This document shows, in pieces, positions 1-26,300 of a stretch of DNA of 32,000 nucleotides. The stretch's first letter is position 1, and the number at the start of each line of letters is the position of its first letter. The position numbers were made by a program, and so were the translations under genes. A model generated the notes under the pieces. The model saw only the letters and a program-made list of their open reading frames with translations. It was not told the DNA's origin and did not search any database. The stretch comes from Pseudoalteromonas translucida KMM 520 (GTDB lineage Bacteria; Pseudomonadota; Gammaproteobacteria; Enterobacterales; Alteromonadaceae): the NCBI RefSeq assembly GCF_001465295.1, contig NZ_CP011034.1:1320001-1352000 (forward strand), in the 5' to 3' direction.

Positions 1-1
1 G

Positions 2-223
2 AGAACTCGAGCTAAGACAATACTGGTTACGTGGTTAAAAACTATTAACACGGATTATTTTACTATTGGCGACCCTGGTACATTTAACCCATATCAAGCT
101 AATACGTTTCAAAACGTGCCTGTTGGACAGCAGTATAATTACCACGTCTACCATGTTGATGGTGCCGCATCTGAAGAGTTAGCAGACCAATTAGAACAGT
201 ACATTAATTGGGATTGGCCATAA
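2..223 (+). CDS. 3' end of an unidentified CDS (partial, enters from the left edge)
   Basis: Frame 2 is open from the window edge to TAA at 221-223. My translation ends ...DPGTFNPYQANTFQNVPVGQQYNYHVYHVDGAASEELADQLEQYINWDWP*. It is absent from the ORF track because no start codon lies in the window. No family recognised. Confidence 0.4.
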   Translation, partial: RTRAKTILVTWLKTINTDYFTIGDPGTFNPYQANTFQNVPVGQQYNYHVYHVDGAASEELADQLEQYINWDWP

Positions 224-310
224 GCTAGATAGTGTTTTCAGATACAGATTCAATAATTAGCAGTAAAGGTAGCTTCGTGTTTGATTAACATTTAACGAGT
301 GCATTACACC

Positions 311-459
311 AGATTGCAAAGATTGCAGGTATAGCGATAACTGCGCACTATAAAAACAAATAACTCATTGAAAATATTTAAAAATAACCACTGCGCACAT
401 ATAAGTTGCGCAATTACTGCGACATAATGCGCATGAGTGCACCTGCTGCGCACTAAAGC
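311..459. promoter_or_regulatory. Cluster of TGCGCA-core boxes (candidate operator/promoter array) upstream of the accessory cassette
   Basis: CTGCGCAC occurs at 341-348, 391-398 and 446-453 (spacing 50 and 55 bp). Each copy is followed directly by a TA-rich hexamer: TATAAA 349-354, TATAAG 400-405, TAAAGC 454-459. Palindromes TTGCGCAA (406-413), ATGCGCAT (427-434) and GTGCAC (437-442) lie between them. There is a degenerate ACTGCGAC at 416-423 and a tandem AGATTGCA at 311-318 and 320-327. Confidence 0.5.
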
Positions 460-545
460 ATGAAGTGAAAATGACGCTAAGGCAGCGTGTGTTACCCATA
501 AATTAACAGCTATGGACGAAACTGCTAAAAAGGAGAAGGCGAATA

Positions 546-1277
546 ATGGAGAAATTTGGAAGGTGCTTTAAATGGATAACTTTCACTTACGTGATATTAG
601 TTCTGGTCATAATTTTTGCTTACGGTTTTTTTGTTAAAGGAGGTAGCTGGGGCAGTTTAAGTGATGTTGTTATTGCTGTATTTACAGTACTCATTGCTTA
701 TACAACAAACATGCTATTAATTGCTGCTTGGCTTACTAGTAGCTCTTGGTTAGACCAGAGCAAACATAGCTCAGCTCAAGAGCTTCTTTTGTCACTTTCT
801 GAATACTACTTTACTATTCATGAAATTAAGACGATGTATATTGAGAAGAGATTTCTTGAAAGCTTTACCAAAATAACTCCGAATAATTATCATAAGCTCT
901 CCAGCCAAGCGTTAAAGTATTTCGAAGGGACACCTAAAAACGCCACACCAGCTCAACTTGCGCCTTTTTTGGATTTCATATTGCCCACATTTAAAGAGGA
1001 AGCTGAAAAACTAAAGCCTCAAATTTACGCAATTAAGGAAAAATTAAATCAGCTCAAATTTGAAGTTATGACAAAGGCAAGCCCATTCGCAATAGAGATC
1101 GAGCATTTAGATTTTGATTTAATAACAGAGATTAATTTCATGCTAACGATAGATGAAAACATGCACAAAAACGCCAGCCAATTATTTGATAAACTTAGTG
1201 CCGCCACTGGTTATGATGGCTTTAAGTTAATGTATATCGCAGACCCAGTAAAAGACGGGCTATTCAAGGATGCTTGA
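546..1277 (+). CDS. Two-TM membrane protein with a cytoplasmic helical C-terminal domain, unknown family (cassette gene A)
   Basis: AGGAG at 531-535 precedes ATG 546. Two hydrophobic helices are present (WITFTYVILVLVIIFAYGFFV and VVIAVFTVLIAYTTNMLLIAAWL), followed by about 180 aa of polar sequence. The stop overlaps the next start (ATGCTTGA). The gene is AT-rich. Confidence 0.75.
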   Translation: MEKFGRCFKWITFTYVILVLVIIFAYGFFVKGGSWGSLSDVVIAVFTVLIAYTTNMLLIAAWLTSSSWLDQSKHSSAQELLLSLSEYYFTIHEIKTMYIEKRFLESFTKITPNNYHKLSSQALKYFEGTPKNATPAQLAPFLDFILPTFKEEAEKLKPQIYAIKEKLNQLKFEVMTKASPFAIEIEHLDFDLITEINFMLTIDENMHKNASQLFDKLSAATGYDGFKLMYIADPVKDGLFKDA

Positions 1278-1644
1278 TAGTAATTTTAACAAAGCTGATT
1301 TATATCTTGATTTACCTCATGGCGTATCAGGCTTAATTGAGAAAAACAAAAACGCCACTTTCTACGGCATCGCCAGTGGTCGCTCAATGGAAGGTGTTGG
1401 CATATTCGATGGTGATTTACTTATGATTGATAGAAGCTTAAGTGTAGAGCCTGGTGATGTGATCGTTGCTGTACTTAACGGCCAGTATGTTTGCAAAATA
1501 GCAGACCTTAAAAATAACCTGCTTTTATCTGCAAGTGATGAGTACGGCCCTTATAAACTCAAGGAGGGTGACGAGTTTACATTAGAGGGTGTAGTTAGCA
1601 GCTCAGTTCGCATGCATCGTGGAAATATAAAGGATACTATTTAG
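1270..1644 (+). CDS. S24 peptidase, UmuD'-like, with no cleavable N-terminal arm and no HTH domain (cassette gene B)
   Basis: The SGRSM serine motif (S39) and YVCK lysine (K76) are spaced 37 residues apart, as in UmuD S60/K97 and LexA S119/K156. GDLLMIDRS...GDVIVAVLNGQYVCK...LEGVVSSSVRMHR aligns by eye with UmuD DGDLLIVDS...GDIVIAAVDGEFTVKK...VFGVVIHVVKAMR. An in-frame TAA at 1249-1251 rules out a longer N-terminus. Confidence 0.85.
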   Translation: MLDSNFNKADLYLDLPHGVSGLIEKNKNATFYGIASGRSMEGVGIFDGDLLMIDRSLSVEPGDVIVAVLNGQYVCKIADLKNNLLLSASDEYGPYKLKEGDEFTLEGVVSSSVRMHRGNIKDTI

Positions 1645-1645
1645 C

Positions 1646-2521
1646 ATGTGTAATACAGAAAAAAAACCAAAGCACAAGCAAGTTTTTGCTATTGATGAGA
1701 GTGAAGGATTGCACAAGAACTATTCTTTTAGGCTGGCTATATTTCTACCTATTGTGTTTTCGGCCGCAATAATTATTATATTCTCTTTACAGCTATGGAG
1801 CGATGGCGGATTTAGATTGGGATTTTCACAATCAGAAGTGTCAGCATTTATTAAATATTTTTCATTTCCAATATCTTTATTGCCACTTAGCATTGTTTTT
1901 GGCGTTATGGTTGCGAGGTTCCATTCGTCAAAGCAAAAGGCAAAAAGCAACTTGATTACTGAGGTTAACAATTCAGTAAATTTTTTTTACAAAACACATG
2001 AAGAATTTGATAAATATTGTCAGAAATTATTGGCTGTTGAGCATTCTGTATTTAATAATATTGATTCAGTTATATGTTATGGGTTCCTATTTAAAAACAG
2101 CACGACTAAAAACCCATCTTTAATCATCAATGATGAAACAATTCAGCAAATTGAAAAGTTTTACTTTTTATACTTTAACTGCTTTATGGATTATATTTCT
2201 AGCGAGGAATATAGAAATAGAAATGTGAGACTAGAATATGGAGAGGCACATGGATTTGCAGATTATTATGTAAAAAATTTCCAGCTACAACTTGGTATAG
2301 ATATCAATAGAATATTTTTAATTCACTACATAAAAGACTTTGATAAAAACATTAAATCTATAAATAAAGCATTCTTAAAGTTAATTGCCTTCCCAGGGGT
2401 TGATAATTTTATTGAGTCCCATAAGAGGTTATCTTCTATAGAAGATAACATTTTACGCTTGCTAGACGAGAGTGTTGCCTATCAAGTCGAAGTTAAGAGC
2501 TTGCAAACCCCCCAATCCTGA
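1646..2521 (+). CDS. Two-TM membrane protein with a cytoplasmic C-terminal domain, unknown family (cassette gene C)
   Basis: ATG lies 1 nt after the TAG of gene B. TM helices are FRLAIFLPIVFSAAIIIIFSLQLW and FIKYFSFPISLLPLSIVFGVMVARF. The post-TM segment loosely resembles that of gene A. The gene is very AT-rich. Confidence 0.75.
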   Translation: MCNTEKKPKHKQVFAIDESEGLHKNYSFRLAIFLPIVFSAAIIIIFSLQLWSDGGFRLGFSQSEVSAFIKYFSFPISLLPLSIVFGVMVARFHSSKQKAKSNLITEVNNSVNFFYKTHEEFDKYCQKLLAVEHSVFNNIDSVICYGFLFKNSTTKNPSLIINDETIQQIEKFYFLYFNCFMDYISSEEYRNRNVRLEYGEAHGFADYYVKNFQLQLGIDINRIFLIHYIKDFDKNIKSINKAFLKLIAFPGVDNFIESHKRLSSIEDNILRLLDESVAYQVEVKSLQTPQS

Positions 2522-2543
2522 TATAGTATTTCCCATGTTGAAG

Positions 2544-2581
2544 AAATCCGCTTAGTTTATGACTGAGCGGATTTTTGTTTT
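2544..2581 (+). terminator. Intrinsic terminator closing the A-B-C operon
   Basis: AAATCCGCT (2544-2552) pairs with AGCGGATTT (2566-2574). The stem extends inward by TAGT/ACTG with one G-T pair, leaving a 5-nt loop. TTTTTGTTTT follows. It starts 23 nt after the gene C stop. Confidence 0.75.
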
Positions 2582-2594
2582 AAAAGGACGTAAA

Positions 2595-3380
2595 ATGAAC
2601 AACCAAAATGATAGCAGTACATTAGACTTATTTCGAGAGCGATTAGCTAGCCCGTTTCTATTCACTTTTTTTTGGGTATCGTGTACTTGGAACTGGAAAT
2701 TGATTTATTGGTTTTTATATGAACCACTAAAGCCAAGCATAAAACTTGTACGCTTACCTTTTGAGTGGGAAGTGCTGACTCCTGTTTTAATTACAGTTGC
2801 GGTTATAAGTGTTGTTCCGTGGCTCAATAATGCGGTAGAGATAATAAAACAATTTGCAGAACATCAGTTAAACCTTTGGCTTAATAAGCTGAACTGGAAA
2901 AAAATGGTTACTGAAGCTCAATACCAAAAGTTGGTCGATGAGGTTGCACAGTTAAAGGAGAAGCAGCACCAGCTCGTCAACGATAACATTAAAGCTCAAG
3001 AAAGTGAGATTCAAGCGAAGAAGGAGTTACTTTCTTCGCAAGCGGAAGTTAATTTAAATTTAAAAAAGCTATCTGACCTAGAAAGAGAAAAAACAGCTCT
3101 TTCCACTAAATTATTTGAGGTGGAGAAATGTAGGGCGGTGTTAGGCGATGAATTAGGCCCATTGAAAAAGAAGGTGGAAGAAATAGAAAAAGTGATTAGA
3201 GATAGCATGGGGGAGCTATCTGAGCTGGAGTTTGACTCAAGTGACAGATCATACGCCTGGCTTAATCAACTTACTAAAAGATATAAATATATTATTAGTA
3301 TAATAGATGAAAAAGAAGCTAAATGGCGCTTCAATCAGGCTATATATGAATTAGAGAAAAAGAAAATCAATAATAAATAA
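2595..3380 (+). CDS. Two-TM membrane protein with a long C-terminal coiled coil, unknown family (cassette gene D)
   Basis: AAGGA at 2584-2588 lies 6 nt before ATG 2595. The track start at 2559 sits in the terminator loop. TM helices are FLFTFFWVSCTWNWKLIYWFLY and VLTPVLITVAVISVVPWL. About 110 aa of heptad-like E/K/L/Q-rich sequence follows. Confidence 0.7.
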   Translation: MNNQNDSSTLDLFRERLASPFLFTFFWVSCTWNWKLIYWFLYEPLKPSIKLVRLPFEWEVLTPVLITVAVISVVPWLNNAVEIIKQFAEHQLNLWLNKLNWKKMVTEAQYQKLVDEVAQLKEKQHQLVNDNIKAQESEIQAKKELLSSQAEVNLNLKKLSDLEREKTALSTKLFEVEKCRAVLGDELGPLKKKVEEIEKVIRDSMGELSELEFDSSDRSYAWLNQLTKRYKYIISIIDEKEAKWRFNQAIYELEKKKINNK

Positions 3381-3450
3381 ACTATCTACTTTATTTTATA
3401 GCGCTTATTGCTAATATTTCAACAAGTTAGGTGTTTTACGCCTAGCTAGA

Positions 3451-3476
3451 AAAGCCCGCTTAACTGCGGGCTTTTT
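3451..3476 (+). terminator. Intrinsic terminator after gene D
   Basis: AAAGCCCGC (3451-3459), loop TTAACT, GCGGGCTTT (3466-3474), T-run to 3476. Confidence 0.75.
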
Positions 3477-3524
3477 CGTATGCGCACAATGGTAAGGTTT
3501 TATTAGCCATTTTATTCCTTAGTT

Positions 3525-3554
3525 AAGCCCAGCCCTCACCGGTTGGGCTTTTTT
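3525..3554 (+). terminator. Second tandem intrinsic terminator just upstream of the lysis genes
   Basis: AAGCCCAGCC (3525-3534) pairs with GGTTGGGCTT (3541-3550), with one G-T pair and loop CTCACC. T-run 3549-3554. Confidence 0.7.
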
Positions 3555-3584
3555 ATGCGCGAAACAAATTTATAGGTGGGCGTT

Positions 3585-3935
3585 ATGACAAGCGATAAAG
3601 AAATGTGTAAAGACTTTGAAGATAGCGGGGCGGTGTTTCCAAAAGTTACGCCTGAGCGTATTGAAGAGCTAATGCAGCAGGTTCGATACATTCCGTCATT
3701 AGTAGAGGGGACTACAACAACGCTTGTTGTTAGCGTTCTACCAATTGGGCTAACAGAGTTTACTTTAGCCACCACCACAATGGCATGTGTAGATAAGCGC
3801 AATTTTAATGCTGAAAAGGGCGTTAAGTATTGTATTGAGAAATGCGAAAAAGAAACGCGCAATAAACTGTGGGAGCTTGAGGGTTACGCTTTATCGCAAT
3901 TCATTCAGGCCGGTCATTATGATTATAAAAGCTAA
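3585..3935 (+). CDS. Phage N4 gp49 / Sf6 gp66 family protein
   Basis: AGGTGG at 3574-3579 precedes ATG 3585; the track start at GTG 3576 has no RBS. The pattern VTPERIEEL...TTTTLVVSVLPIGLTEF...ACVDKRNFNAEKGVKYC...KLWELEGYAL matches my recollection of the Pfam Phage_gp49_66 family. Confidence 0.7.
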   Translation: MTSDKEMCKDFEDSGAVFPKVTPERIEELMQQVRYIPSLVEGTTTTLVVSVLPIGLTEFTLATTTMACVDKRNFNAEKGVKYCIEKCEKETRNKLWELEGYALSQFIQAGHYDYKS

Positions 3936-4413
3936 AAGCCTAATCGCGCTTGGACTGACAGGTGTTCTTGCTGCGGTTGGTGTAACGGTTGCTAACTTTG
4001 AAGGTAAAGAGCTGGTTGGTTATGTTGACCCTGTTGGCATTGAAACAGCTTGCTTTGGGCATACTGCTACAGCTATCGCAGGTAAGGAATATACAGAGCA
4101 TGAATGCTTAAATCTGTTTGCGCAGGACTTAGCTGAACATGACGAGCAGTTAAACCATGCTGTATTGGTCCCGCTCACTCGCGGTGAGCACATGGCTTAT
4201 TTATCATTTCATTACAATGTAGGTGCCGGGAACTTTAGGCGCAGCACATTATTAAAATATCTAAACGAAAATCAACGCTTACGAGCGTGTGATGAATTAA
4301 CTCGCTGGGTTTATGCCAATGGGCGCAAGCTTACGGGGCTTGTTAAGCGCAGAGAGCAAGAACGCACAATGTGTCTAGAAGGAGTTAGTAGTAATGTTGA
4401 AATTTCTAGGTAG
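3919..4413 (+). CDS. SAR-type endolysin, GH24 (T4/P21 lysozyme-like)
   Basis: FEGKELVGYVDPVGIETACFGHT carries the canonical E-x8-D-x5-T catalytic triad. The N-terminus MIIKAKSLIALGLTGVLAAVGVTVA is a Gly/Ala-rich weakly hydrophobic helix typical of signal-arrest-release domains. ATG 3919 overlaps the stop of the upstream gene. The track start at 3808 would overlap that gene by 128 nt. Confidence 0.85.
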   Translation: MIIKAKSLIALGLTGVLAAVGVTVANFEGKELVGYVDPVGIETACFGHTATAIAGKEYTEHECLNLFAQDLAEHDEQLNHAVLVPLTRGEHMAYLSFHYNVGAGNFRRSTLLKYLNENQRLRACDELTRWVYANGRKLTGLVKRREQERTMCLEGVSSNVEISR

Positions 4414-4900
4414 CGTAGAGCGAGTTATTATAGCTGCGTTAATAGTCACGATACTGGCGCTTACTTACTCAGCGAACAACCTCAGAAAAAAGTCTATAAC
4501 AGATGGTCAAGCACTCGAAAATTTAGAGTTGGCTTTAGATAAAGCTGCGCAGACAAACAAATATTTAAGCCAAAGCGTAAAGCTATCAGAGCAGAGCAAC
4601 GCAAAACTACTGAAAGAGCGTAAATCACTTGAGGCCATTAATGCCCAACACAGTGATGAGCTTGCATTGCTCAACTCACAAATAAACATCGCACAAGAAA
4701 ACATTCAAAAACTAAGGGGTTCAAATGACAGCACAATTAAAGCCTGGGCTAATCATTGCGTGCCTGATTATGCTATCAGCTTGCTCAAGTACGCGGAGCC
4801 CCAAAGTTGTAACAGAAACAATAGTACAAACACAGTACAAGTACCTACTGCCGCCAGCGGTGTTTTACCAGGCGTGCGAAGTGGCAAAATCAAATTCTAA
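4394..4900 (+). CDS. i-spanin (Rz-like)
   Basis: GGAG at 4381-4384. There is one N-terminal TM (VIIAALIVTILALTYSA) followed by a periplasmic coiled coil. The start overlaps the endolysin stop. A lipoprotein gene begins in a different reading frame inside its 3' end. Confidence 0.8.
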   Translation: MLKFLGSVERVIIAALIVTILALTYSANNLRKKSITDGQALENLELALDKAAQTNKYLSQSVKLSEQSNAKLLKERKSLEAINAQHSDELALLNSQINIAQENIQKLRGSNDSTIKAWANHCVPDYAISLLKYAEPQSCNRNNSTNTVQVPTAASGVLPGVRSGKIKF

Positions 4901-5012
4901 TGTTAGCGATACCGCTAGCTTATTAGCTTACACACGCTACCTGGAGTCTTTGATAGATACTTGCAATGAAAATACTAAACGAATTAAACAATGGGCATTG
5001 GACAATGGATAA
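4725..5012 (+). CDS. o-spanin lipoprotein (Rz1-like), overlapped architecture
   Basis: AAGGGG RBS. The signal peptide ends in the lipobox L-S-A-C (Cys20). The gene starts inside the i-spanin in another frame and runs 112 nt past its stop. Confidence 0.8.
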   Translation: MTAQLKPGLIIACLIMLSACSSTRSPKVVTETIVQTQYKYLLPPAVFYQACEVAKSNSNVSDTASLLAYTRYLESLIDTCNENTKRIKQWALDNG

Positions 5013-5295
5013 GCAAACAACAGTGTATAGCTACACTGCAAGCATCGGCACTGCTGCTGGCGGTCTTATGTCATTGAATACTTTAGCCCTGTTGTTAGGA
5101 ATAGTCTTTACAGCCGCAACGTTTTTCATTAACTGGCGCAGTCAAAAGCACCGCCTTGAGATTGAGCTGCAAAAACGCAAAGAAGATGCTGAATTTCATC
5201 GTGCGCGCATGGCAAAACTGTCGGGCGATGATGTAAACCATTACAACAAGCGGGTAATGAAGGATGATCGCCGGTGTCAAAATGGGCCGATTTAA
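5005..5295 (+). CDS. Holin, two TMDs (possibly a pinholin)
   Basis: ATG 5005 overlaps the o-spanin stop (ATGGATAA). TMD1 ASIGTAAGGLMSL is Gly/Ala-rich and TMD2 is LALLLGIVFTAATFFINW. The C-terminal tail is highly charged. The track start at 4966 is less likely. Confidence 0.65.
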   Translation: MDKQTTVYSYTASIGTAAGGLMSLNTLALLLGIVFTAATFFINWRSQKHRLEIELQKRKEDAEFHRARMAKLSGDDVNHYNKRVMKDDRRCQNGPI

Positions 5296-5981
5296 ACGAG
5301 CTGTTTTTAAAGGAGCATGCTGAAAAGGGTATCGGGCCTCTTGAGTTTTGCGAAAGCAATGGCCTGAATTACGCCACCGCCAGGCGATATATAAAACTAC
5401 CGCAAGCGAATTTAAAGAATGCCCCTAAACAGCGCAAGACTAAAGACGGTAAAAAAAGACCTGGCGTTAAGCCTGGTACCAGAAACCGAAGCATAGTTAA
5501 GCATGGTGGTTACTCAAAGTATTTTGAAAACAATATTAATCAACTTGTCGAAGGTACAACACTTGAAGATGAGCTAGACCTTTGCCGCGCTCGCATTCAC
5601 ATGGTTATGGATGCTATTGAGGGTATTCAAAAGCTTTTAGATAACCCTGAAACAGACAATGATGCAAAAACACGACTTTATGAGTCGCTATTTAAAGCTG
5701 AAATGTCGCTTGATAGAAACGTTTGCAGAGCTGAGTCGATAACTAAAACATTATCGAGCATTAAAACAGACTCGCTTGCACGCGGTAAATTGATTGCTGA
5801 AACATCACGAATTACACAGCAGACCAAAGCACTGGTTCATTCTACTAAGCGCGGCAAGCACCAGGCAGAAATTTCAGAGCATGAAGCGATTAAAGCACGC
5901 AAAGAAGCAGGCGGTACCAGTAAGCTTGATGATTATATTGATAAACGTACTGGCGGTTTAGATACCGTGGTTAGTCAATAA
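5274..5981 (+). CDS. Terminase small subunit
   Basis: GTG start with GAAGGA upstream. The N-terminus is HTH-like (LEFCESNGLNYATARRYIK), followed by a basic linker and a helical oligomerisation-like region. It lies immediately upstream of, and overlaps, the large terminase. Confidence 0.75.
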   Translation: MSKWADLNELFLKEHAEKGIGPLEFCESNGLNYATARRYIKLPQANLKNAPKQRKTKDGKKRPGVKPGTRNRSIVKHGGYSKYFENNINQLVEGTTLEDELDLCRARIHMVMDAIEGIQKLLDNPETDNDAKTRLYESLFKAEMSLDRNVCRAESITKTLSSIKTDSLARGKLIAETSRITQQTKALVHSTKRGKHQAEISEHEAIKARKEAGGTSKLDDYIDKRTGGLDTVVSQ

Positions 5982-7714
5982 TGCAGCCTAAAACAGCTAA
6001 ATACCCCAAAAGCACGTGGCTTACGCAAGAAGAGCGCTTTAATTTAGATGAAGCTGAGTTGTTTGAACGCTGCGACCCATACCTAGATTGTTGGTGGTGG
6101 CGCATAAACAACTTATACATCATTGCTAACGAAAAGGGCCAAGAGGTTTTGTTTCGTTGCCGTATAGCGCAAACCGTATTGTTTATGACGATGTGGTTTT
6201 TAAACATTATCTTAAAAGCGCGGCAATTGGGCTTCAGTACAGCAATACAGGTTTTTATCCTGGACCATGCCATGTTTAACGATAACAGGCAGTGCGGGGT
6301 AATTGCTCAGGGTAAAGACGAAGCGGGCGCTATATTCTCGTCAAAGATACTTTACCCCTACGAACGGCTACCGAATTTCTTAAAGACGGGCAAGCGCTCA
6401 GTTAAAAGCAAGACGGGTACCGGGATTAAATTTAACAATGATTCGTGGATAAGGGTTGCAGTATCGTTTCGTTCGGGAACGCTGCAGGTTTTACACGTAT
6501 CAGAATACGGCAAGATATGCGCTAACTACCCATTGCGGGCAGATGAAGTGCAATCGGGCTCGTTTAACGCCGTACATGAGGACTCTTACATATTTGTAGA
6601 GTCAACAGCCGAAGGCGCAACCGGCAATTTCTTTGATATGTCAGTCGATGCGATGGAGCTATTAGCGTCCGGGATTGATTTATCACAGCAAGATTTTAAG
6701 TTTCACTTTTACCCTTGGTTTGATGATCCTAAGTATGTAGCCCCGGTACCACCAGGCGGCCTAAAACTTTCAAAGGAAAAAGTTAAATACTTTGCGTCAG
6801 TTGAAGCGGCAAACGGCGCAACGCTAACAGACGAGCAAATTAGCTGGTACATAGGCAAAGAGCGTAACCAAAAAGGCAAGATGAAGCAGGAATATCCATC
6901 TACACCGATGGAGGCTTTTTTAACGTCGGGCCGTAAAGTATTTGATAGCGATGATTTAATGCGTGCCGAAGGGCGATGCGTTAAGCCATTAATTGTTTAT
7001 GACATTGAGCCATACACCGGCAAGCTTAAAAAAATGAACGGTAAAGTTGATTTAAGCGTAAGAGGCGGCGACAAACTTGCTCAGTCAACGCTTGGGTACC
7101 TACTTATTTGGGAATTACCCGACGATAACGAAGATTATGCGATCGGCGGCGATGTTGCAGAAGGACTTGAACATGGCGATCGCAGCTCATTAGACGTTGT
7201 TGCCAGTTCAGACGGGCGACAGGTAGCGCATTGGTTTGGTCATATAGACCCTAAGCGGTTTGCACATATAAATAAGCATATCGGATTAATGTATAACAAG
7301 GCTTATATCGGCATTGAGCGAAACAATCACGGTCATGCAACACTTCAAGAGCTTGTTGATATTTACCCAACGAGCCGGATTTACACGGAAGAGCACATTG
7401 ATCGTGAAGATACGGACGAAGAAACCCGCAAAGTAGGCTGGAATACAACTGCGCAATCAAAGCCAATTTTAACGAGTGGCCTTGATGAGCTGCTTACTCA
7501 CGACAAAGACGGCATTGTTTGGCGCGGCACAGTTAATGAACTCAATACATTTGTTTACGATAAAAAAGGCCGCATGGGCGCACAGCCTGGCGGGTTTGAT
7601 GATCAGGTGATGAGCTATGCAATTGCGCAAGAAATGCGAGTAAGAATGCCTAAGCGGCTAATTAAAGACAATACACCAGCACCCCATAACCCTAACTCTT
7701 GGATGGCACGATAA
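5981..7714 (+). CDS. Terminase large subunit
   Basis: 577 aa. It has the ILKARQLGFST motif typical of the Terminase_6-type ATPase N-domain, and a C-terminal nuclease-like FDDQVMSYAIA. Its position is between TerS and the portal. Confidence 0.9.
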   Translation: MQPKTAKYPKSTWLTQEERFNLDEAELFERCDPYLDCWWWRINNLYIIANEKGQEVLFRCRIAQTVLFMTMWFLNIILKARQLGFSTAIQVFILDHAMFNDNRQCGVIAQGKDEAGAIFSSKILYPYERLPNFLKTGKRSVKSKTGTGIKFNNDSWIRVAVSFRSGTLQVLHVSEYGKICANYPLRADEVQSGSFNAVHEDSYIFVESTAEGATGNFFDMSVDAMELLASGIDLSQQDFKFHFYPWFDDPKYVAPVPPGGLKLSKEKVKYFASVEAANGATLTDEQISWYIGKERNQKGKMKQEYPSTPMEAFLTSGRKVFDSDDLMRAEGRCVKPLIVYDIEPYTGKLKKMNGKVDLSVRGGDKLAQSTLGYLLIWELPDDNEDYAIGGDVAEGLEHGDRSSLDVVASSDGRQVAHWFGHIDPKRFAHINKHIGLMYNKAYIGIERNNHGHATLQELVDIYPTSRIYTEEHIDREDTDEETRKVGWNTTAQSKPILTSGLDELLTHDKDGIVWRGTVNELNTFVYDKKGRMGAQPGGFDDQVMSYAIAQEMRVRMPKRLIKDNTPAPHNPNSWMAR

Positions 7715-7717
7715 CAG

Positions 7718-9814
7718 ATGGCTGATCACGTAAAATCAAATAAAGACGGCTTTACGCTAGATAAGCTGTTAACCCTGCTTGGCGATATTGACAGCCAACC
7801 CGATTGGCGCACGCCAGCAACTAAAGCGTGTGCGTACTATGACGGCGACCAATTAAGCGAAGCGGTAAGAAAAGTATTACGCGATCGCGGACAGCCCGAA
7901 ATAGTGCACAACATGATTGGGCCAACTATTGATGGTGTATTAGGCCTTGAAGCCCGATCACGTTCAGATCTAATGATTGTTGCCGATGATGAAAACGGTG
8001 ATGAATTAGCGAAAGCATTAAATGAAAAGTTTAAAGACGCCTGGCGTTTATCTCATGCTGATCGTGCTTGCTCGGATGCTTACGCTAGCCAGTTAAAAGC
8101 GGGCATTGGTTGGGTAGAAGTTACTAAAAATCCAATACCTTTTGCAGCAGCTTACCGCGTTAAGTTTATTCACCGTCGCGAAGTGTGGTGGGACTGGAAC
8201 GCACAAGAAGCCGATCGCAGTGATGCACGTTGGATGCTGCGTAAAAAATGGCTAGACCTGGACGAAGCCCTTACTACTTTTCCGGACCACAAAGAAATTT
8301 TAAAGAACTCAGTTAATTTGTGGGAAGATTTTTACAAGACGGTAGATAAAAAGCACGTAGAAGAGCATGGATTACACTCCGCTTGGCACGATAGCCAAAG
8401 CTGGACACGCGGACAAAGCGAATGGCTGGACCAAACTCGCAACCGTGTATTGCTGCAAGTTATTTACTACAAAGTATGGAAGCGCGCGCACATCATTAAA
8501 ATGAGCGATGGCCGTGTTATTGAATACGATAAAAATAACGATATTCACCAGGCTGCGGTACAAAGCGGCAAGGTTACTCTTGAATACGCTGCATTCCCTA
8601 ACGTGCGTGAAGCGTGGTTTGTTGGCCCGCATAGGATTATTGATAGACCAAGTGAAGCGCCTGGCGGCATGTATAACCTAATACCTTTCATTGGCTATCA
8701 AAAAGATGCAAGCGGTGAACCTTATGGACTGATCAGTCGCATGGTACCGGCACAAGATGGCATTAACGCACGCGTTATACGTCTTAACTACTTACTACAA
8801 GCACGACGAGTAATAGCCGATGATGATGCGACGCAGTTAAGTAACGACCGATTAAAAGAAGAAATCGAAAAGCCGGACGGGTACATACCACTTAACCCGG
8901 ACCGTAAAAGCAAGTTAAAGGCGTCAGATGCGTTAAGCATTCAAAACGATGTAGGCATTGCGGCGCAGCAGTTTAACTTAATGCAAAATGATATGAAGCT
9001 TATCCAGGACACAGCCGGCGTTTATAACTCGATGCTAGGCCAGGACAGCAACGCAGTAAGTGGTGTAGCCATTGCAAACTTGGTTGAGCAAGGCACAACA
9101 ACGCTTGCTGAGCTTAATGATAACTTTCACTTTTCACGTAACCGCGTAGGCGACTTGCTACTGGCTTTCATCATTGAAGAGTTAAAGCCGCAAAACAACG
9201 TGCAAGTAACCGCTAATCGCGACGATAAAGCGAAGCGTAAGCAGATTGTACTTAACCAGCCAAATGAAAGTGGCAAGCGTGATAACGATGTAGCGCGCTG
9301 GAAAGGTCACTTAGCGTTAGCACCGGTTAAAGCAACACCAACGTATCGACAGCAGCAAGCAACGCTACTAAGCAATGTAATGAGCCAGATACCGCCAGAA
9401 GCACAAGCAGCAACTATGCCTATGTTTGTTGAATTGATGGACCTACCAAACAAAGAAGAGTTTTTAGCAACACTACGCCAGGCGTTAAACATTCCTAAGC
9501 CGCAAGAGGATATGAACGAAGATGAACTTGCACAAGCTCAAGCCCAGGCTGAAAAAGCACAGGCGATGGAAGAGCTACAAATGCAAGAGATCCAAGGCAA
9601 TATGGAAAAGTTAGCCCTTGAGCGCGAACAGCTAAAAGTCAAAATACTTGAATTACAGAAGAAAACTGAAACAGAAGAAGTTAAAGACGACAAGTTGATA
9701 GCTGAAACTGAAAAGATTTTAAGTGAAGTGCGCCGTAGTAACGCTGAAATAGCAGCTATGAAGTCAAACGTACAAGCGAACATTCAACAACAACTAGACG
9801 CGATACAGGTGTAG
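7718..9814 (+). CDS. Portal protein with a C-terminal coiled-coil extension
   Basis: 698 aa, starting 3 nt after the TerL stop. The last ~100 aa are E/Q/A/K-rich and heptad-like. Called from position and size; no motif recalled. Confidence 0.8.
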   Translation: MADHVKSNKDGFTLDKLLTLLGDIDSQPDWRTPATKACAYYDGDQLSEAVRKVLRDRGQPEIVHNMIGPTIDGVLGLEARSRSDLMIVADDENGDELAKALNEKFKDAWRLSHADRACSDAYASQLKAGIGWVEVTKNPIPFAAAYRVKFIHRREVWWDWNAQEADRSDARWMLRKKWLDLDEALTTFPDHKEILKNSVNLWEDFYKTVDKKHVEEHGLHSAWHDSQSWTRGQSEWLDQTRNRVLLQVIYYKVWKRAHIIKMSDGRVIEYDKNNDIHQAAVQSGKVTLEYAAFPNVREAWFVGPHRIIDRPSEAPGGMYNLIPFIGYQKDASGEPYGLISRMVPAQDGINARVIRLNYLLQARRVIADDDATQLSNDRLKEEIEKPDGYIPLNPDRKSKLKASDALSIQNDVGIAAQQFNLMQNDMKLIQDTAGVYNSMLGQDSNAVSGVAIANLVEQGTTTLAELNDNFHFSRNRVGDLLLAFIIEELKPQNNVQVTANRDDKAKRKQIVLNQPNESGKRDNDVARWKGHLALAPVKATPTYRQQQATLLSNVMSQIPPEAQAATMPMFVELMDLPNKEEFLATLRQALNIPKPQEDMNEDELAQAQAQAEKAQAMEELQMQEIQGNMEKLALEREQLKVKILELQKKTETEEVKDDKLIAETEKILSEVRRSNAEIAAMKSNVQANIQQQLDAIQV

Positions 9815-9816
9815 CG

Positions 9817-10206
9817 ATGAAACAACTAGAAAGTCTTGACCACATACCGGCAGAGCATATGGAGCAGATCAAGGCCATTGCCAAAATGTGCCATGAAGTT
9901 AACCGCGCTTACTGCGCCGCATTACGCGAAGATCAACCAAGTTGGGAAATGGCCCCACAATGGCAAGTTGACTCTGCTATTAAAGGCGTTGCGTTCCACA
10001 TTTTAAACCCTGACGCACCAGCAAGCGCTTCACACGAAAGCTGGATGGCTGAAAAAGTAGTTGCTGGCTGGAAGTATGGCAAGGTGAAAGACGCCAATAA
10101 AAAACAGCATCCTTGCATGGTACCGTTTCATCACCTACCAGTAGAGCAGCAAGCCAAGGACTATATTTTTAGCGCTATCGTTAAGCAAGCTATTCACGCA
10201 GGCTAG
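9817..10206 (+). CDS. RyR-domain protein
   Basis: SHESWMAEKVVAGWKYGKVKDANKKQHPCMVPFHHLPVEQQAKDYIF matches the RyR domain signature (HE-W, GW-YG, K-HP-LVP-LP, K-D). AGGTG RBS. Confidence 0.75.
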   Translation: MKQLESLDHIPAEHMEQIKAIAKMCHEVNRAYCAALREDQPSWEMAPQWQVDSAIKGVAFHILNPDAPASASHESWMAEKVVAGWKYGKVKDANKKQHPCMVPFHHLPVEQQAKDYIFSAIVKQAIHAG

Positions 10207-20313: not shown

Positions 20314-23300
20314 ATGGCTAAGTTAACAAAAGGTGGCTTTTCGGGTATTGCTCGAAAGGCAAAGCAAAGCCAATCAGAAGGCGCGATCACAGAGAACATT
20401 GAAATATTAACCGGGCAACGTGGTAGTGGTGAAAACCGCGCGCTATTAGTTAAGGACCTGGTTAACTTAGATGATATGAAACGCAATGCGCTAATCAATA
20501 GCGCAAAGGGTGGCAACAATAGCGGTGGCTTACCCATTGTTGTAGGTGGTATTCAGCGCCCGCACGCACCAGTAAACCTTAGCGCTACCGGCGGCTTTAC
20601 GTTTATAGCACTAACCTGGGACCGCCCAACTTATCGAGGTCACGCTTACGCTGAAATTTGGCGCAGCGAAACAGACGCGTACAACACAGCTACGCTTATA
20701 GCTACCGAAGTGGCGGACGTATTTAGCGACTCAGTAAACATGGGTGCTGAATTTTACTATTGGGTTCGCTTTGTAAACGTTGCTGATATGAAAGGCCCTA
20801 CGCAGGGCGCAAAAGGTATCTATGCTAAAACTGTTGAGTCTGCGGCGTCTATACTTGATGAAATAGGCGGGAAAATTGAAGGCTCGCACCTGGGGGATTT
20901 CCTAACGTCTGAAATAGGGAAGATACCGGAAATAGATTTTACTTTAAACGAAGTGATCACGGTTGAGATACCGAAATTAAAAGTAGACGTTGATAGCTTT
21001 GGAGCCGACGCCGACCAACTGCGCATTGACGCTGACTCATTACGCGTTGATGTTGATAGTAACCTTGCAGCAATACCCCCGCTTAAGCTTGATGTTGATA
21101 AAATAAAGCTGACTGAAATACCAAAATTAAAGACTGACATTGATCAGCTAAATGTAGATGTTCCTGCATTAAGGGCGGACGTTGATAAAAACCTGGTAGA
21201 TATTCCAGCGTTAAGAATAGACGTTGATAAAAACCTGCTAGAAATACCGGACATTAAAAGCGATGTTAGTGCGATAAATGTTGAGATACCAGCTATTCGC
21301 CAGGACTTAATAGACTTAACTGGCGAATCAGCAGAAATCAAAGCTATTGCAGATACAGCAAAACAAAGAGTTGAATCGGTAGAAGCAAGCAGCGAAACTT
21401 TAGCTAGGCAGCTAATTGAAAGCGCGTCGGTAAATGATACCAATTGGCAAAGCAATACGACAAAGCTAATAGCGTTTGAATCGTCTTTAGAAAATGTGAA
21501 TGCCCGTATTGAGTCTGATTTTTTAACTAAAACAGAAGCAAACGAAGCGATAGCCGCCGCGTCACAAACCATACGCACTGAAATAGAAGAGTCGGGCTTA
21601 GCGCTATCTGGTGATATAGAGAGTACCTATTACACTAAAACAACTACAGATCAGGCAATTGCTCAAGCGACCCAGGATATAAAGGCGCAAATTGAAGATC
21701 CATTGGGTAGCAGTGTTGGCGCTCAACTTAAATCGCAGCATTACACTAAAGTCGATGCGGACAGCGCGATTAGCTTTTCAGCAGAGCAGCTAAAATCAGC
21801 AATAGAGAACCCGGCGGGTACCAGCCTGGGCGCATTAATAAACAACGACTATTACACAAGCATTGCTACAGATAGCGCCATTGCGGCTTATGGCTTGCAA
21901 CTAAAAAGCGATATTGAAAACCCGGAAGGCGATAGTATAGGGGCCTCACTTAAAACCGATTACTACACTAAAACCGATACGGATAGCGCAATAAGCCAGG
22001 CGACTACGCTATTAAGCTCAGAAATTACCGGCGCAACCGATCAGATAGATACAATAAATGCCACACTTACAAGCGATTATTATACAAGTGCGGAAGCGGA
22101 TCAGGCGGTATCAGCAGCGACGCAGCTTTTAAAATCTGAAATAGAAAACCCGTTAGGCTCAAGTGTTGGCGCAACTTTATTTAATAACTACTCGACTACC
22201 ACAACTACAAATGAGGCTATAAGCCAGGCGACGACTGAGCTTAAATCAACCTTGGATGGTGACATTGGCGCGATAAGTGCGGACCTGGGCAGCAATTACT
22301 ACACCATAGCCAGCACAGACAGCGCAATAAGCCAGGCGACACAGTTATTAAAATCAGCAATTGAGGACCCGCTAGGCACTAGCATTGGTGCGACTTTGGC
22401 TACTGAATATTCTACTACGGTAGATATAGACCAAGCTATTAGTGAAGCAACTACGCAGCTGAACTCGAACATTGATAGTGCCGAAGCAGATATTTACCAA
22501 AACGTATATACGAAAGTTGAGGCAGATACCGCCATATCAGGAAGTGTAACTGCGCTCAGATCTGAATTAAGCAAGGTTATCGAGGATGGCGACACCGCTT
22601 TATTCCAGGACTTTAGTGCGGACCTGCAAACTAACTACTACACAAAAACACAAGCGGACGGCGCGATAAGCTCGGCTACAACGGCTTTAAAATCAGCGCT
22701 TGATAGTGATATAGGTAATGTAACTACTGAGCTACAAGATAACTACCTTACAAAAGTAGGCACCAACTCAGCCATTAGCCAGGCTACGCAGCTTTTAAAA
22801 TCTGAGATTGAAGATCCAGAGGGCAACAGCCTGGGCGCTACGCTTTTTACCGACTACTCAACTAAGACAGAAGTTAACCTGGCAATTAGTGAAGCGACCA
22901 CACAGCTAAACACTAACCTAGATAACCTGCAGTCTGATGTATATAACAACTTTTACACCAAAACGGATGCGGATAGCAGCATAGCCGGTAGCGTTACCGC
23001 GCTTAGATCTGAGCTTATGCAGGTTATTGATGATGGCAATAGCGACGCCGTTCAATCCATCGAAGCCGACCTGCAAACTAACTACTACACCAATGTAGCA
23101 ACAGATAGCGCTATCAGTGAGGCGACAACCTTACTAAAGACAACTATTGAAGATCCGCAAGGGGATAGCCTGGGTGCTGAACTGTTTAATCGGTACTACA
23201 CCAAAACAGACACCGACGGCGCATTGGCTGAACTTAATACGCAGCTAAGGGCAGAGTACCAACCACTAAGCGAAGCGGTTATTGAAAACGCCCTTGCCAA

Positions 23301-26300
23301 TGATGAGGCAAACAACAAGCAGCTAAAATTTGCAGCAGAGATAATATCGCAACAGAAAACCTTTGTTGATGATCAGGGCGCGCTTGCTGAGTCTATTTTT
23401 GCGCTACGTTCTGAATTTGGCGACAGCCAGGCAGAGCTATATACCTTGAAAGAAACGTATGCTGGCAACGTGCTAGCAACTGCGAAGGAGTTTAACAAAC
23501 TAGAGTCAAGCATAGGCGACGTATCAGCAACGCTATTAAATAGCTATGACACATCGGCCACGACAACAGAAGCGATAGCTAATGCGGTTTTGGCCCTTAA
23601 ATCTGAAATAGAAGATCCTGCAGGGGATAGTGTAGCCGCCAACCTACAGGTGAACTACTACACCAAAACTGATACTGATAACGCACTAAGCGAGCTAACC
23701 ACGCAGTTAAACGCAAGCGTCACCGGTTTATCAGCTGAAATTTATGAAAACATTTATACTAAGGTCGATGCGGACAGCGCTATAAGCTCGGCTGTTACTG
23801 CGCTTCGCTCAGACGTTGATAGTGATATAGGCGAACTTAGTGCAGGAATAGAGCAAAACTACTACACCAAAACGGATGCGGACAGCGCAATAGCACAGGC
23901 TAACCAACTGCTAAAATCGGCTATTGAAGATCCGGAAGGTAGTAGCCTGGGCGCAACCTTGTTTAATGCTTACTACACAAGCACTCAAGCAGATAGCGCG
24001 ATAAGTGAGGCCACAACGGCCCTTAAATCTGTTTTAGATAGTGACATAGGTAGCGTTACTGCGGACTTGCAAAACAATCACTCTACTACAGCGCAAACAA
24101 ATCTCGCCATTTCAGAAGCGACCCAGCAGTTAAAAAGTGCTATTGAAGATCCCGCCGGCGACAGTTTAGCGGCGGATATTTACACTAACTTTTCAACCAA
24201 GGCTGATACAACTAGCGCCATTAGTGAAGCGACAACAGCGCTAAAATCTACACTCGATGGCGATATAGGTGCGGTTTCGTCCGACTTGCAGACTAACTAT
24301 TTAACTAGCACGCAAACAGATGAAGCCATTAGCCAAGCGAATACCTTATTAAAATCGACAATAGACGATGATATAAGCTCAGTAGCCGCAGACCTACAAA
24401 CTAACTACCTAACAAGCACGCAATCTAACCAGGCGATAAGCGAAGCTACTACAGCGCTTAAATCTGTTTTAGACGGCGATATAGGAAGTGTTGCGGCGGA
24501 CTTGCAGAACAACCACTCTACGACAGCAGAAACAAATTTAGCTATATCCCAGGCAACCCAGCAACTTAAAAGCGCAATCGAAGATCCTGCCGGAGATAGC
24601 TTAGCGGCAGATATTTACACCAATTTCTCAACCAAGACAGATACAACCAGCGCAATAAGCCAAGCAACTACGGCACTAAAATCTACACTTGATGGCGAAA
24701 TTGGCACAGTAGCATCGGATTTGCAGACTAACTACTACACGAAAACTAACACTGACAGCGCCATTAGCCAGGCGACTACGGCGTTAAAATCTACGCTGGA
24801 CGGCGATATAGGTGCGGTAGCCTCAGACTTACAGACTAATTATTTAACCAGCACGCAAACGGATCAGGCAATAAGCCAGGCAACCACAACATTAAAATCC
24901 ACACTGGATGGTGATATTGGCGAGGTGGCCGCAGATCTGCAAAACAACTATCGCACAGAGACAGATACCGATACGGCAATCAGCCAGGCAACAACTGTTT
25001 TAAAAAGTGAGATTGAAGATCCGGAAGGCAACAGCCTGGGCGCTACGTTATTTAATGACTTTCAAACTAAGGTGGATGCGGACAAATCAACGGCAACGAC
25101 TAACCAGCAACTTAGGGCAGAGTTTGAGCCAAGCGCACAAGCGGTAATTGAAAACGCATTAGCGAATGACCTGGGGCAAGGCAGAAGAGCGCTAGCCGAG
25201 GCTGATATAATCAACAAGCAAACTGTTTTTGCTAATGAGCAAGAAGCACTAGCCGAATCCATTACCCTGCTAAATACGTCGATTGACGAAAGTAACTCAA
25301 ACCTTTACCAGCTACAAAAGACTTTTGCCAGCAAGACGCAGGCAACCGCACAGGATTTATTAAAGCTCGATAGCAGTGTTGGCGATGTTAAGGCTGATTT
25401 AGTAAATAACTACTTCACTAGCGCAGACGTTAACGAGGCAATAGCCAGTGCAGATATGGCTTTGCGTGCTGCCATAAAAGGCGGCGACGATGAAGCTTTA
25501 GAGACTGTAACGGCAGAGCTACAAACCAATTATTATACAAAGGCATCGGCAGATAGCGCCATTGCAGAAGCGACGACGCAACTTAAAAGCGCCATTGAGG
25601 ACCCTAACGGATCAAGTGTTGGTGCTGATTTATACGTTAACTATTCAACAACTACTGAAACAGGCTTAGCTATAAGCTCAGCTGTTACCGGGCTAAAGTC
25701 TACAATTGATACTGATATTGGCAACTTAAGCGCTGGATTGTCGCAGAATTACTACACAAAAACCGATACAGATAGTGCAATAAGCCAGGCTACTACAGCT
25801 TTAAAGTCAACACTTGATGGCGATATTGGCGACTTGAATGCGGTTTTGCAGACGGACTATTACACTAAGGTAGCCACGGATAGCGCGATTAGCTCAGCAG
25901 TAACCACCTTAAAGTCTACGCTGGATAGTGATATAGGAAGTTTGGGCGCAGTATTGCAGGCAAACTACTACACTAAAACAGCGGCGGATAGTGCGCTTAG
26001 CTCAGCAGTAACTAATCTAGGCTCTAAAATTGACACTGATATAGGCGTTGTTAATTCAGGGCTGCAAACAAATTACTACACTAAAACAGCAACAGATAGC
26101 GCCATTAGCTCAGCAGTAACTACGCTTGAATCAAGTGTGGGTGATGATATTGGCGACTTAAGCGCGGTACTACAGGCCAACTACTACACGAAAACAAACA
26201 CTGACGGCGCAATTAGTAGCGCCAGCCAGGTGCTAAAAGCCGCTATTGAGGACAAAAACGGTAACAGTGTGGGTGCCAGCCTGCAAACACTTGGCGAAAC

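Follow-up and report, generated by a model that had tools for sequence, protein, structure and literature searches.

What can a phage gain from a UmuD-type protease that keeps its catalytic site and lacks the arm on which that site normally acts? In E. coli, UmuD, an accessory and regulatory subunit that belongs to error-prone DNA polymerase V (Pol V), undergoes RecA*-stimulated self-cleavage at Cys24-Gly25 to yield UmuD', with Ser60 and Lys97 as the catalytic residues. Pre-processed UmuD' homologues have been known in phages since P1 HumD, and have been read as plain suppliers of an activated Pol V subunit. Here, we consider a gene that raises the question anew, located at 1270-1644 on the forward strand of a prophage-bearing stretch of Pseudoalteromonas translucida KMM 520 (contig NZ_CP011034.1, positions 1,320,001 to 1,352,000; the whole 32,000-nucleotide (nt) stretch is called the window below) and encoding an arm-less S24/UmuD-type protein of 124 amino acids (aa). 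The comparisons point to a marine umuD gene that was stripped down independently of HumD and whose active site is probably still in use.

The lack of an arm could in principle be an artifact of start-codon choice or of sequencing. The gene runs from ATG to TAG, its product is 100% identical to PTRA_a1447 of P. translucida KMM 520, and an in-frame TAA at 1249-1251 (forward strand), 21 nt 5' of the ATG, bars a longer N-terminus, as an earlier note on this DNA, made from the sequence alone, had claimed; S24 homologues in other prophages likewise carry in-frame stops just 5' of the equivalent Met. Further, the frame upstream is a different one, occupied by a 243-aa gene (gene A, 546-1277) that has homologues of its own and overlaps the S24 start by 8 nt. 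Because of the upstream TAA, gene A, and the stops in homologues, a frameshift hiding an arm or a helix-turn-helix (HTH) domain, which that note had allowed for, is excluded. The gene is also real and under selection, with 110 homologues and ratios of nonsynonymous to synonymous substitution rates (dN/dS) of 0.07-0.16 where dS is unsaturated, values that mark the family as one evidently kept under strong purifying selection.

In a Pfam profile scan, the 124-aa protein matched Peptidase_S24 (PF00717; E = 1.7e-13, 50.7 bits against a cut-off of 23.3) and no other domain. Its best matches among solved structures are to UmuD' (1i4v, 1ay9, and 1umu; E ~1e-11), with LexA at ~3e-7, and PHROG 811, "UmuD-like protein", is matched at 8.5e-27. 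An AlphaFold 2 (AF2) model with a mean predicted local distance difference test (pLDDT) of 80 superposes best on UmuD' 1umu (template modelling score 0.80) and on RecA-bound UmuD 8gmt. The NCBIfam UmuD model (NF007621) gives 73.5 bits, which is below its cut-off of 110, yet is the best-scoring family for this protein. The description of a stand-alone UmuD-type domain thus holds, and with the S24 domain alone in the 124 aa and a stop upstream, so does the argument that a protein with no HTH is not a CI/LexA-type repressor. Alignment places Ser39 (codon 1384-1386, forward strand), the predicted nucleophile, on UmuD Ser60, and Lys76 (codon 1495-1497, forward strand), the predicted general base, on UmuD Lys97, with the spacing of 37 residues equal in the two proteins and no sign that either residue was misassigned.

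Where the protein begins relative to the UmuD cut point can be read from two alignments, which agree with the proposed start at the UmuD' N-terminus. Numbering is shifted by 21 relative to E. coli UmuD, whose Gly25 thus corresponds to residue 4. With the chromosomal UmuD of P. distincta, the alignment has no gaps and the shift is 10 (57% identity across the 106 aa of residues 12-117; Ser39 pairs with Ser49), and Met1 therefore takes the place of the P1' Gly of its Ala10-Gly11 site. Nowhere does the window protein contain an Ala-Gly or Cys-Gly dipeptide, although a self-cleavage site would be expected ~35 residues before the Ser. We also considered whether the N-terminal tail might dock in the active site as a pseudo-substrate and dropped the idea, as residues 1-10 of the AF2 model are disordered and of low confidence.

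These alignments also bear on ancestry. Outside phages, the closest relatives (46-57% identity) are true umuD genes from marine gammaproteobacteria, Pseudoalteromonas among them; these genes encode a 10-12-residue arm ending in Ala-Gly (e.g., MFVIPIYIEA/GVCGFESPAAQY, the slash marking the cut), carry a perfect SOS box 30-38 nt 5' of the start, and are overlapped by a umuC of ~418 aa. Within the genus, the UmuD proteins of P. distincta and P. agarivorans (the latter 52% identical to the window protein) are both encoded in SOS-boxed umuDC operons. Host and phage proteins are thus colinear without gaps at 52-57% identity and have in common the dyad and a C-terminal segment, EGVVxxSxRxHR, whereas the window gene lacks all three host features, i.e., the arm with its Ala-Gly, the SOS box, and the overlapping umuC. 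Judging by these alignments, the window gene is an independent derivative of a marine gammaproteobacterial (Alteromonadales-type) umuD. An origin as a recent duplicate of the C-terminal domain of the prophage's own CI was rejected, the similarity being 38% identity over 29 aa only.

The earlier note had named P1 HumD as the precedent, and this comparison stands for the design and fails for the family. P1 HumD, N15 gp26, phiKO2 gp23, and the HK639 and HK140 proteins are, like the window gene product, stand-alone S24-fold proteins encoded without umuC and starting in the manner of UmuD'; all of them begin with MGFPSPA, the exact N-terminus of E. coli UmuD'. However, the NCBIfam HumD model (NF051876) gives the window protein 21.9 bits against a cut-off of 120, and HumD itself is ~31% identical to it over 52 aa. 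In neighbour-joining (NJ) trees, the HumD-type proteins join the Pseudoalteromonas family in 0 of 100 bootstraps and E. coli UmuD in 72 of 100. Since the HumD-type proteins never group with the Pseudoalteromonas family, the "born cleaved" design has arisen at least twice, and the likeness is one of design and not of descent. This separation from HumD is all that we claim from the phylogeny; the proposed tie to Alteromonadales UmuD is drawn from the high identity. The two families differ in two further respects. LexA sites are annotated for P1 humD, where the box lies at about -37, and for phiKO2 gp23, whereas the window gene has no SOS box. Likewise, the dyad has decayed in HumD-type proteins, in eight of which the Ser position is occupied by S, T, T, Y, A, T, T, and I (lost in seven) and the Lys position K, K, M, R, R, K, K, and K (lost in three), and it is invariant in the family of the window protein. 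In P0382 (MGITGFASPAADY...), a pre-cleaved form that is also marine, the dyad residues are replaced by Ala and Arg.

As a separate observation, homologues of DinI, a RecA-filament-binding protein, are encoded near the HumD-type genes of phiKO2 (locus L101, 78-320) and HK140 (L102, 1-73). In phiKO2, the homologue is divergent from the HumD-type gene and the two have a common region with the annotated LexA site, and in HK140 a small gene lies between them. This suggests small SOS-modulating cassettes in these two phages.

How firmly the dyad is retained in the family of the window protein can be put in numbers. Among the aligned homologues, the Ser is present in 106 of 106 and the Lys in 108 of 110, and the motif SGRSMEGVGIFDGDLL and Asn5 of the N-terminal tail are near-invariant. 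Of the 97 full-length homologues, 95 have no cut site, and these 95 are diverse, their pairwise identity being 57% at the median and 39% at its lowest. Because the dyad decays where the UmuD' role alone is needed and is invariant here, we argue that catalysis is still in use in this armless family, which probably cuts a partner protein. The proposal that a dyad with nothing left to self-cleave points to a trans substrate thereby gains comparative support, and the substrate itself is one that we infer.

Such activity in trans has an experimental parallel. UmuD can be cleaved intermolecularly, and the arm-truncated variant UmuD delta-18, which cannot cleave itself, efficiently cuts UmuD S60A in trans, within heterodimers and on RecA:ssDNA, UmuD/UmuD' heterodimers being the preferred form (PMC5342242). 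Delta-18 resembles the window protein in being arm-truncated and unable to self-cleave, with an active site competent on the arm of a partner; it differs in being a laboratory construct from E. coli that still has the cleavage site, whereas the window protein is natural and its whole arm is gone. Nature may hold a second parallel. In a profile search of 1.84 billion representative proteins, 37 of the 145 best matches were tandem S24-S24 "double UmuD" proteins of ~220-290 aa. In their first domain, the Ala/Cys-Gly site is kept in 28 of 37, the Ser in 14 and the Lys in 4 (Arg in 21), whereas in the second the site is absent from 35, with Ser in 35 and Lys in 36. In one example (P0289; L130, 5001-5771), an SOS box lies 28 nt upstream, and umuC is found directly downstream. 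These proteins look like a substrate protomer, site-bearing and catalytically degenerate, hard-wired to an enzyme protomer, and apparently form a large, undescribed class. Their second domain is, like the window protein, a site-less S24 module with Ser and Lys kept; unlike it, it is covalently joined to its presumed substrate and, in P0289, encoded in an SOS-boxed umuDC operon. Derivation of the phage family from such a second domain is unsupported by the NJ tree.

Gene context sets the armless family apart from ordinary umuD as well. The earlier note found no gene for umuC or another Y-family polymerase in the window, and a tblastn search for umuC agrees (best match E = 4.2). More broadly, umuC adjoins 75 of 76 ordinary umuD loci and none of 7 loci with a solo umuD that retains its site, and it is likewise missing from the 433 kb that flank 39 related site-less loci. 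Regulation by the SOS response was tried for the window gene and rejected, as no SOS box of the form CTGT-N8-ACAG lies upstream of gene A or of the S24 gene even with one core mismatch allowed. Marine phages show a graded series. Whole umuDC operons occur in two prophages (L123 and L129). Solo umuD genes with a Cys/Ala-Gly site and a perfect SOS box, and no umuC, occur in others (P0093/L011/L022, P0099/L009, L121, L127, and L128). Finally, there is a large site-less group, without arm or umuC, made up of a clade from P2-like phages, including gp4 of ACA1 and of C5a, and the lambdoid clade of the window gene. Several P2-like members have an SOS box ~55-60 nt upstream, and ACA1 has one ~270 nt upstream; in the lambdoid clade we found none.

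The family is not new to annotation, in which it already figures as "LexA family protein", "UmuD-like", and "SOS sensing protease" with putative functions. The last of these names was given to ACA1 gp4 and C5a gp4, which are 64% identical to the window protein over residues 28-117 and whose function was hypothesised only, namely to make an HTH-only repressor SOS-inducible (PMC10612066). Both are site-less with an intact dyad and no umuC, as is the window protein. Unlike it, they come from P2-like Pseudoalteromonas phages that have a repressor without an S24 domain, and they lie there in the early/lysogeny module; ACA1 gp4 further differs in the SOS box of its upstream intergenic region, which the window gene lacks. 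A polymerase partner could come from the host. UmuC is common in Pseudoalteromonas, e.g., in P. agarivorans, P. sp. HL-AS1 (the ACA1 host), P. distincta, P. arctica, and P. carrageenovora, and this makes a host partner plausible; P. agarivorans is a species with both UmuC and the prophage S24 gene, and in P. haloplanktis TAC125 umuC lies on plasmid pMEGA (PMC11858219).

Starting from the established anatomy, ancestry, conservation, and gene context of the window gene and its lack of an SOS box, we tentatively favor a reading in which its product is an enzyme-only UmuD protomer that acts on host UmuD and on Pol V. A phage would have captured an Alteromonadales-type umuD as a UmuD paralogue, and the captured gene would have shed the arm with its Ala-Gly site, the SOS operator, and umuC, keeping the Ser-Lys site and the C-terminal region that is conserved with the host. 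The protein might then use the UmuD dimer interface to pair with UmuD-type proteins of the host and, on RecA filaments, cut the arm of the host protomer in trans, and it might itself also be taken up by host UmuC as a pre-formed UmuD'. A promoter controlled by the phage and not by LexA would in that case set the activation state of Pol V in the host. Dimerisation with host UmuD, cleavage in trans, the role in Pol V, and the timing of expression are the steps we infer here.

Several points weigh against this reading. The helix that corresponds to UmuD residues 39-45 is divergent in the lambdoid clade, where it reads GVSGLIEKNK and host UmuD has SLDELLIKH, and heterodimerisation is therefore not assured; the helix includes the position of N41, mutation of which renders E. 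coli UmuD monomeric. It is odd that a protein whose partners are SOS-induced should have lost its SOS box, and since host UmuD dimers already self-cleave, the gain to the phage is not obvious. The UmuC clusters name many Pseudoalteromonas species, and strain KMM 520 is not among them. Finally, the NJ tree is poorly resolved inside the marine UmuD group, with bootstraps of 10-14% for monophyly of the family. The related claim that we are dealing with a natural enzyme-only S24 protomer that cuts Ala-Gly sites in trans, whether in host UmuD or in LexA/CI-type repressors, is one that we regard as possible and still somewhat doubtful.

A retained dyad in a protein without a site of its own would fit any trans substrate, and repressors are the obvious other candidates. 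The protein could be a trans protease or antirepressor for LexA/CI-type repressors with an Ala-Gly site, acting by cleavage, or by a binding that poisons them, on host LexA, on the prophage's own CI, on the repressors of other prophages or, in the P2-like relatives, on the HTH-only immunity repressor, and would thereby couple or commit prophage induction. In favor of this, the C-terminal fragments of LexA and lambda CI reportedly cleave intermolecularly (Kim and Little, 1993), the family is restricted to phages and prophages and spans two immunity types, some of its P2-like members have the SOS box described above, and the function proposed for ACA1 and C5a gp4 is of just this kind (PMC10612066). 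Moreover, the HTH-only ACA1 repressor, gp9 (L001, 3190-3654), carries NPAAGQIAPG just after its HTH, which recalls a LexA-type Ala-Gly cleavage site; however, chance alone would give a 154-aa repressor an AG dipeptide, and this one has three. The lambdoid prophages, for their part, already have a full CI with an S24 domain and the canonical site SWVQAG/KW. The S24-only protein is weakly similar to that CI (the 38% over 29 aa given above) and far nearer to UmuD than to LexA. On this evidence, we consider repressor cleavage unlikely. As a side observation, ACA1 also encodes an IrrE-like antirepressor, gp1, beside the site-less gp4, and the NPAAGQIAPG match alone is not statistically significant.

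A simpler possibility is that the protein mimics UmuD' for host UmuC, as HumD does, and that catalysis is irrelevant to it. The start at the UmuD' N-terminus and the lack of umuC, both as in P1 HumD, N15 gp26, and phiKO2 gp23, would suit such a role, as would the availability of UmuC in the genus. However, this family keeps the dyad and the entire SGRSMEGVGIFDGDLL motif invariant and in HumD-type proteins they have decayed, the window gene has no SOS box, and its product scores below the cut-offs of both the HumD and the UmuD family models, which leaves a pure mimic rather improbable.

The protein might instead damp the SOS response, occupying the groove of the RecA* filament, or UmuD partners, without being consumed; cleavage of LexA, CI, and UmuD would be competitively slowed, and lysogeny would be stabilised or SOS tuned. 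The C-terminal domains of UmuD and LexA do bind the RecA filament groove, and the best structural matches of the window protein include the complexes (8gmt and 8gms). Phages are known to encode proteins that prevent the RecA-mediated cleavage of repressors or modulate SOS, e.g., 434 Hex (PMC3564112), and DinI homologues adjoin HumD-type genes. The position of the S24 gene, 5' of a late-promoter-like element and within a cassette that has an upstream region of its own, would also be compatible. Yet a decoy of this kind has no need of the Ser-Lys dyad, which is invariant, and we judge it improbable.

The surroundings of the gene bear on the last alternative. The window is a lambdoid-type prophage that encodes a P22-type portal and terminase subunits and also has a capsid gene and a lysis cassette; a megablast of its positions 1-8000 against phage records gave no match. 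In relatives whose S24 proteins are 79-95% identical, the order is CI (HTH plus S24), Cro, O, P, NinB, YbcO, RusA, the S24 gene, and then the lysis and head genes; the upstream context is taken from relatives with a 95%-identical S24 protein. CI in the related prophages is a separate 213-aa protein with HTH and S24 domains. Two further genes of the window may be mentioned in passing, namely a 2382-aa open reading frame (ORF) among the structural genes (20314-27462), for which no credible Pfam domain was found, and a gene just after the portal gene (9817-10206) for a 129-aa protein with a RyR domain.

Upstream of the cassette lies an intergenic region of ~320 bp (224-545), for which we propose a regulatory role and in which there is no SOS box. 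Part of it is 96% identical to the region 5' of the first cassette gene in a relative (L002), and it contains three direct repeats, CTGCGCAC(T/A)(A/T), at 341-350, 391-400, and 446-455 (spacings of 50 and 55 nt), with more TGCGCA-like words between them. At the equivalent place, two other relatives (L005 and L006) instead carry CGGAACAA six times, and both sets of repeats are candidate operator sites for a regulator. Gene A, the first of the cassette (546-1277, forward strand), encodes two N-terminal transmembrane helices, has no family match, and is an optional neighbor, found in about half of the lambdoid-clade loci.

Downstream of the S24 gene is a hypervariable slot, filled in the window by gene C (1646-2521, forward strand; 291 aa, two transmembrane helices), which starts 2 nt after the S24 stop. 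Across the window and its relatives (L002-L006, L015-L019, and L104-L115), the slot is empty, as in L016 and L111, or filled by up to two genes. These belong to at least seven unrelated kinds (291-aa, 326-aa, 290-aa, 350-aa, 312-aa, 160-aa, and 108-aa types) and encode mostly small membrane proteins, and the first of them mostly begins 1-11 nt past the S24 stop. A fixed two-gene module of S24 and gene C was rejected, as by tblastn and ORF tables close relatives have an unrelated gene in the slot or none, and the slot looks like a hot spot for morons or superinfection-exclusion genes.

The slot ends at a promoter-like element, TTGCAA-15 nt-TGaTATAGT (2501-2527, forward strand), which overlaps the 3' end of gene C and is kept in all lambdoid-clade relatives. 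It is followed by a hairpin with a 12-bp stem (AAATCCGCTTAG/CTGAGCGGATTT) and a T tract (2544-2581, forward strand), also conserved in relatives, which we read from the sequence and which a terminator scan did not list. The two are likely a late promoter and terminator of the pR'/tR' kind. The listed ATG of gene D, at 2559, sits in the loop of this hairpin, and a start at 2596, with AAGGA 7 nt 5' of the ATG, is therefore preferred (2596-3380, forward strand; 261 codons, a transmembrane segment and a coiled coil). Gene D is an optional neighbor, and both L002 and L018 have a homologue of ~255-268 aa at this position. Because gene D lies downstream of the late-promoter-like element, it belongs to a transcription unit other than that of the S24 gene. 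Two further hairpins resembling intrinsic terminators (~3452-3476 and 3525-3550, forward strand) stand ahead of the lysis genes. The S24 gene itself would thus lie either last in the early region or within a cassette that is autonomous, from which we gauge when it might be expressed.

The earlier note had linked the S24 protein to these flanking membrane genes, a link that the comparisons do not support. That the protein processes A, C, or D is very improbable, for although the spacing is tight on both sides (A overlapping the S24 start and C beginning 2 nt after its stop), A is missing from about half of the relatives, the slot holds unrelated genes or nothing, D lies beyond the promoter/terminator pair, none of the three contains an Ala-Gly or Cys-Gly dipeptide, and all three are absent from the P2-like relatives. 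Since the neighbors vary between related prophages and lack such dipeptides, they are unsupported as partners as well as substrates. A scan against PADLOC-DB gave no match for the S24 protein or A and chance-level matches only for C and D (E >= 0.03).

Together, these comparisons describe a second, independently evolved design of the lone phage umuD, in which the protease site remains under strong purifying selection and the arm, the SOS operator, and umuC are gone. The contrast with the HumD-type genes turns the lone phage umuD into a testable question, namely what the retained site cuts. If trans-cleavage of the kind considered here takes place, Pol V activation in the host or prophage induction would come under the control of the phage and not of the SOS response. 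Should the substrate be host UmuD or a repressor, temperate phages would hold a direct handle on host mutagenesis or on induction, with relevance for the supply of mutations and for prophage dynamics in marine bacteria.

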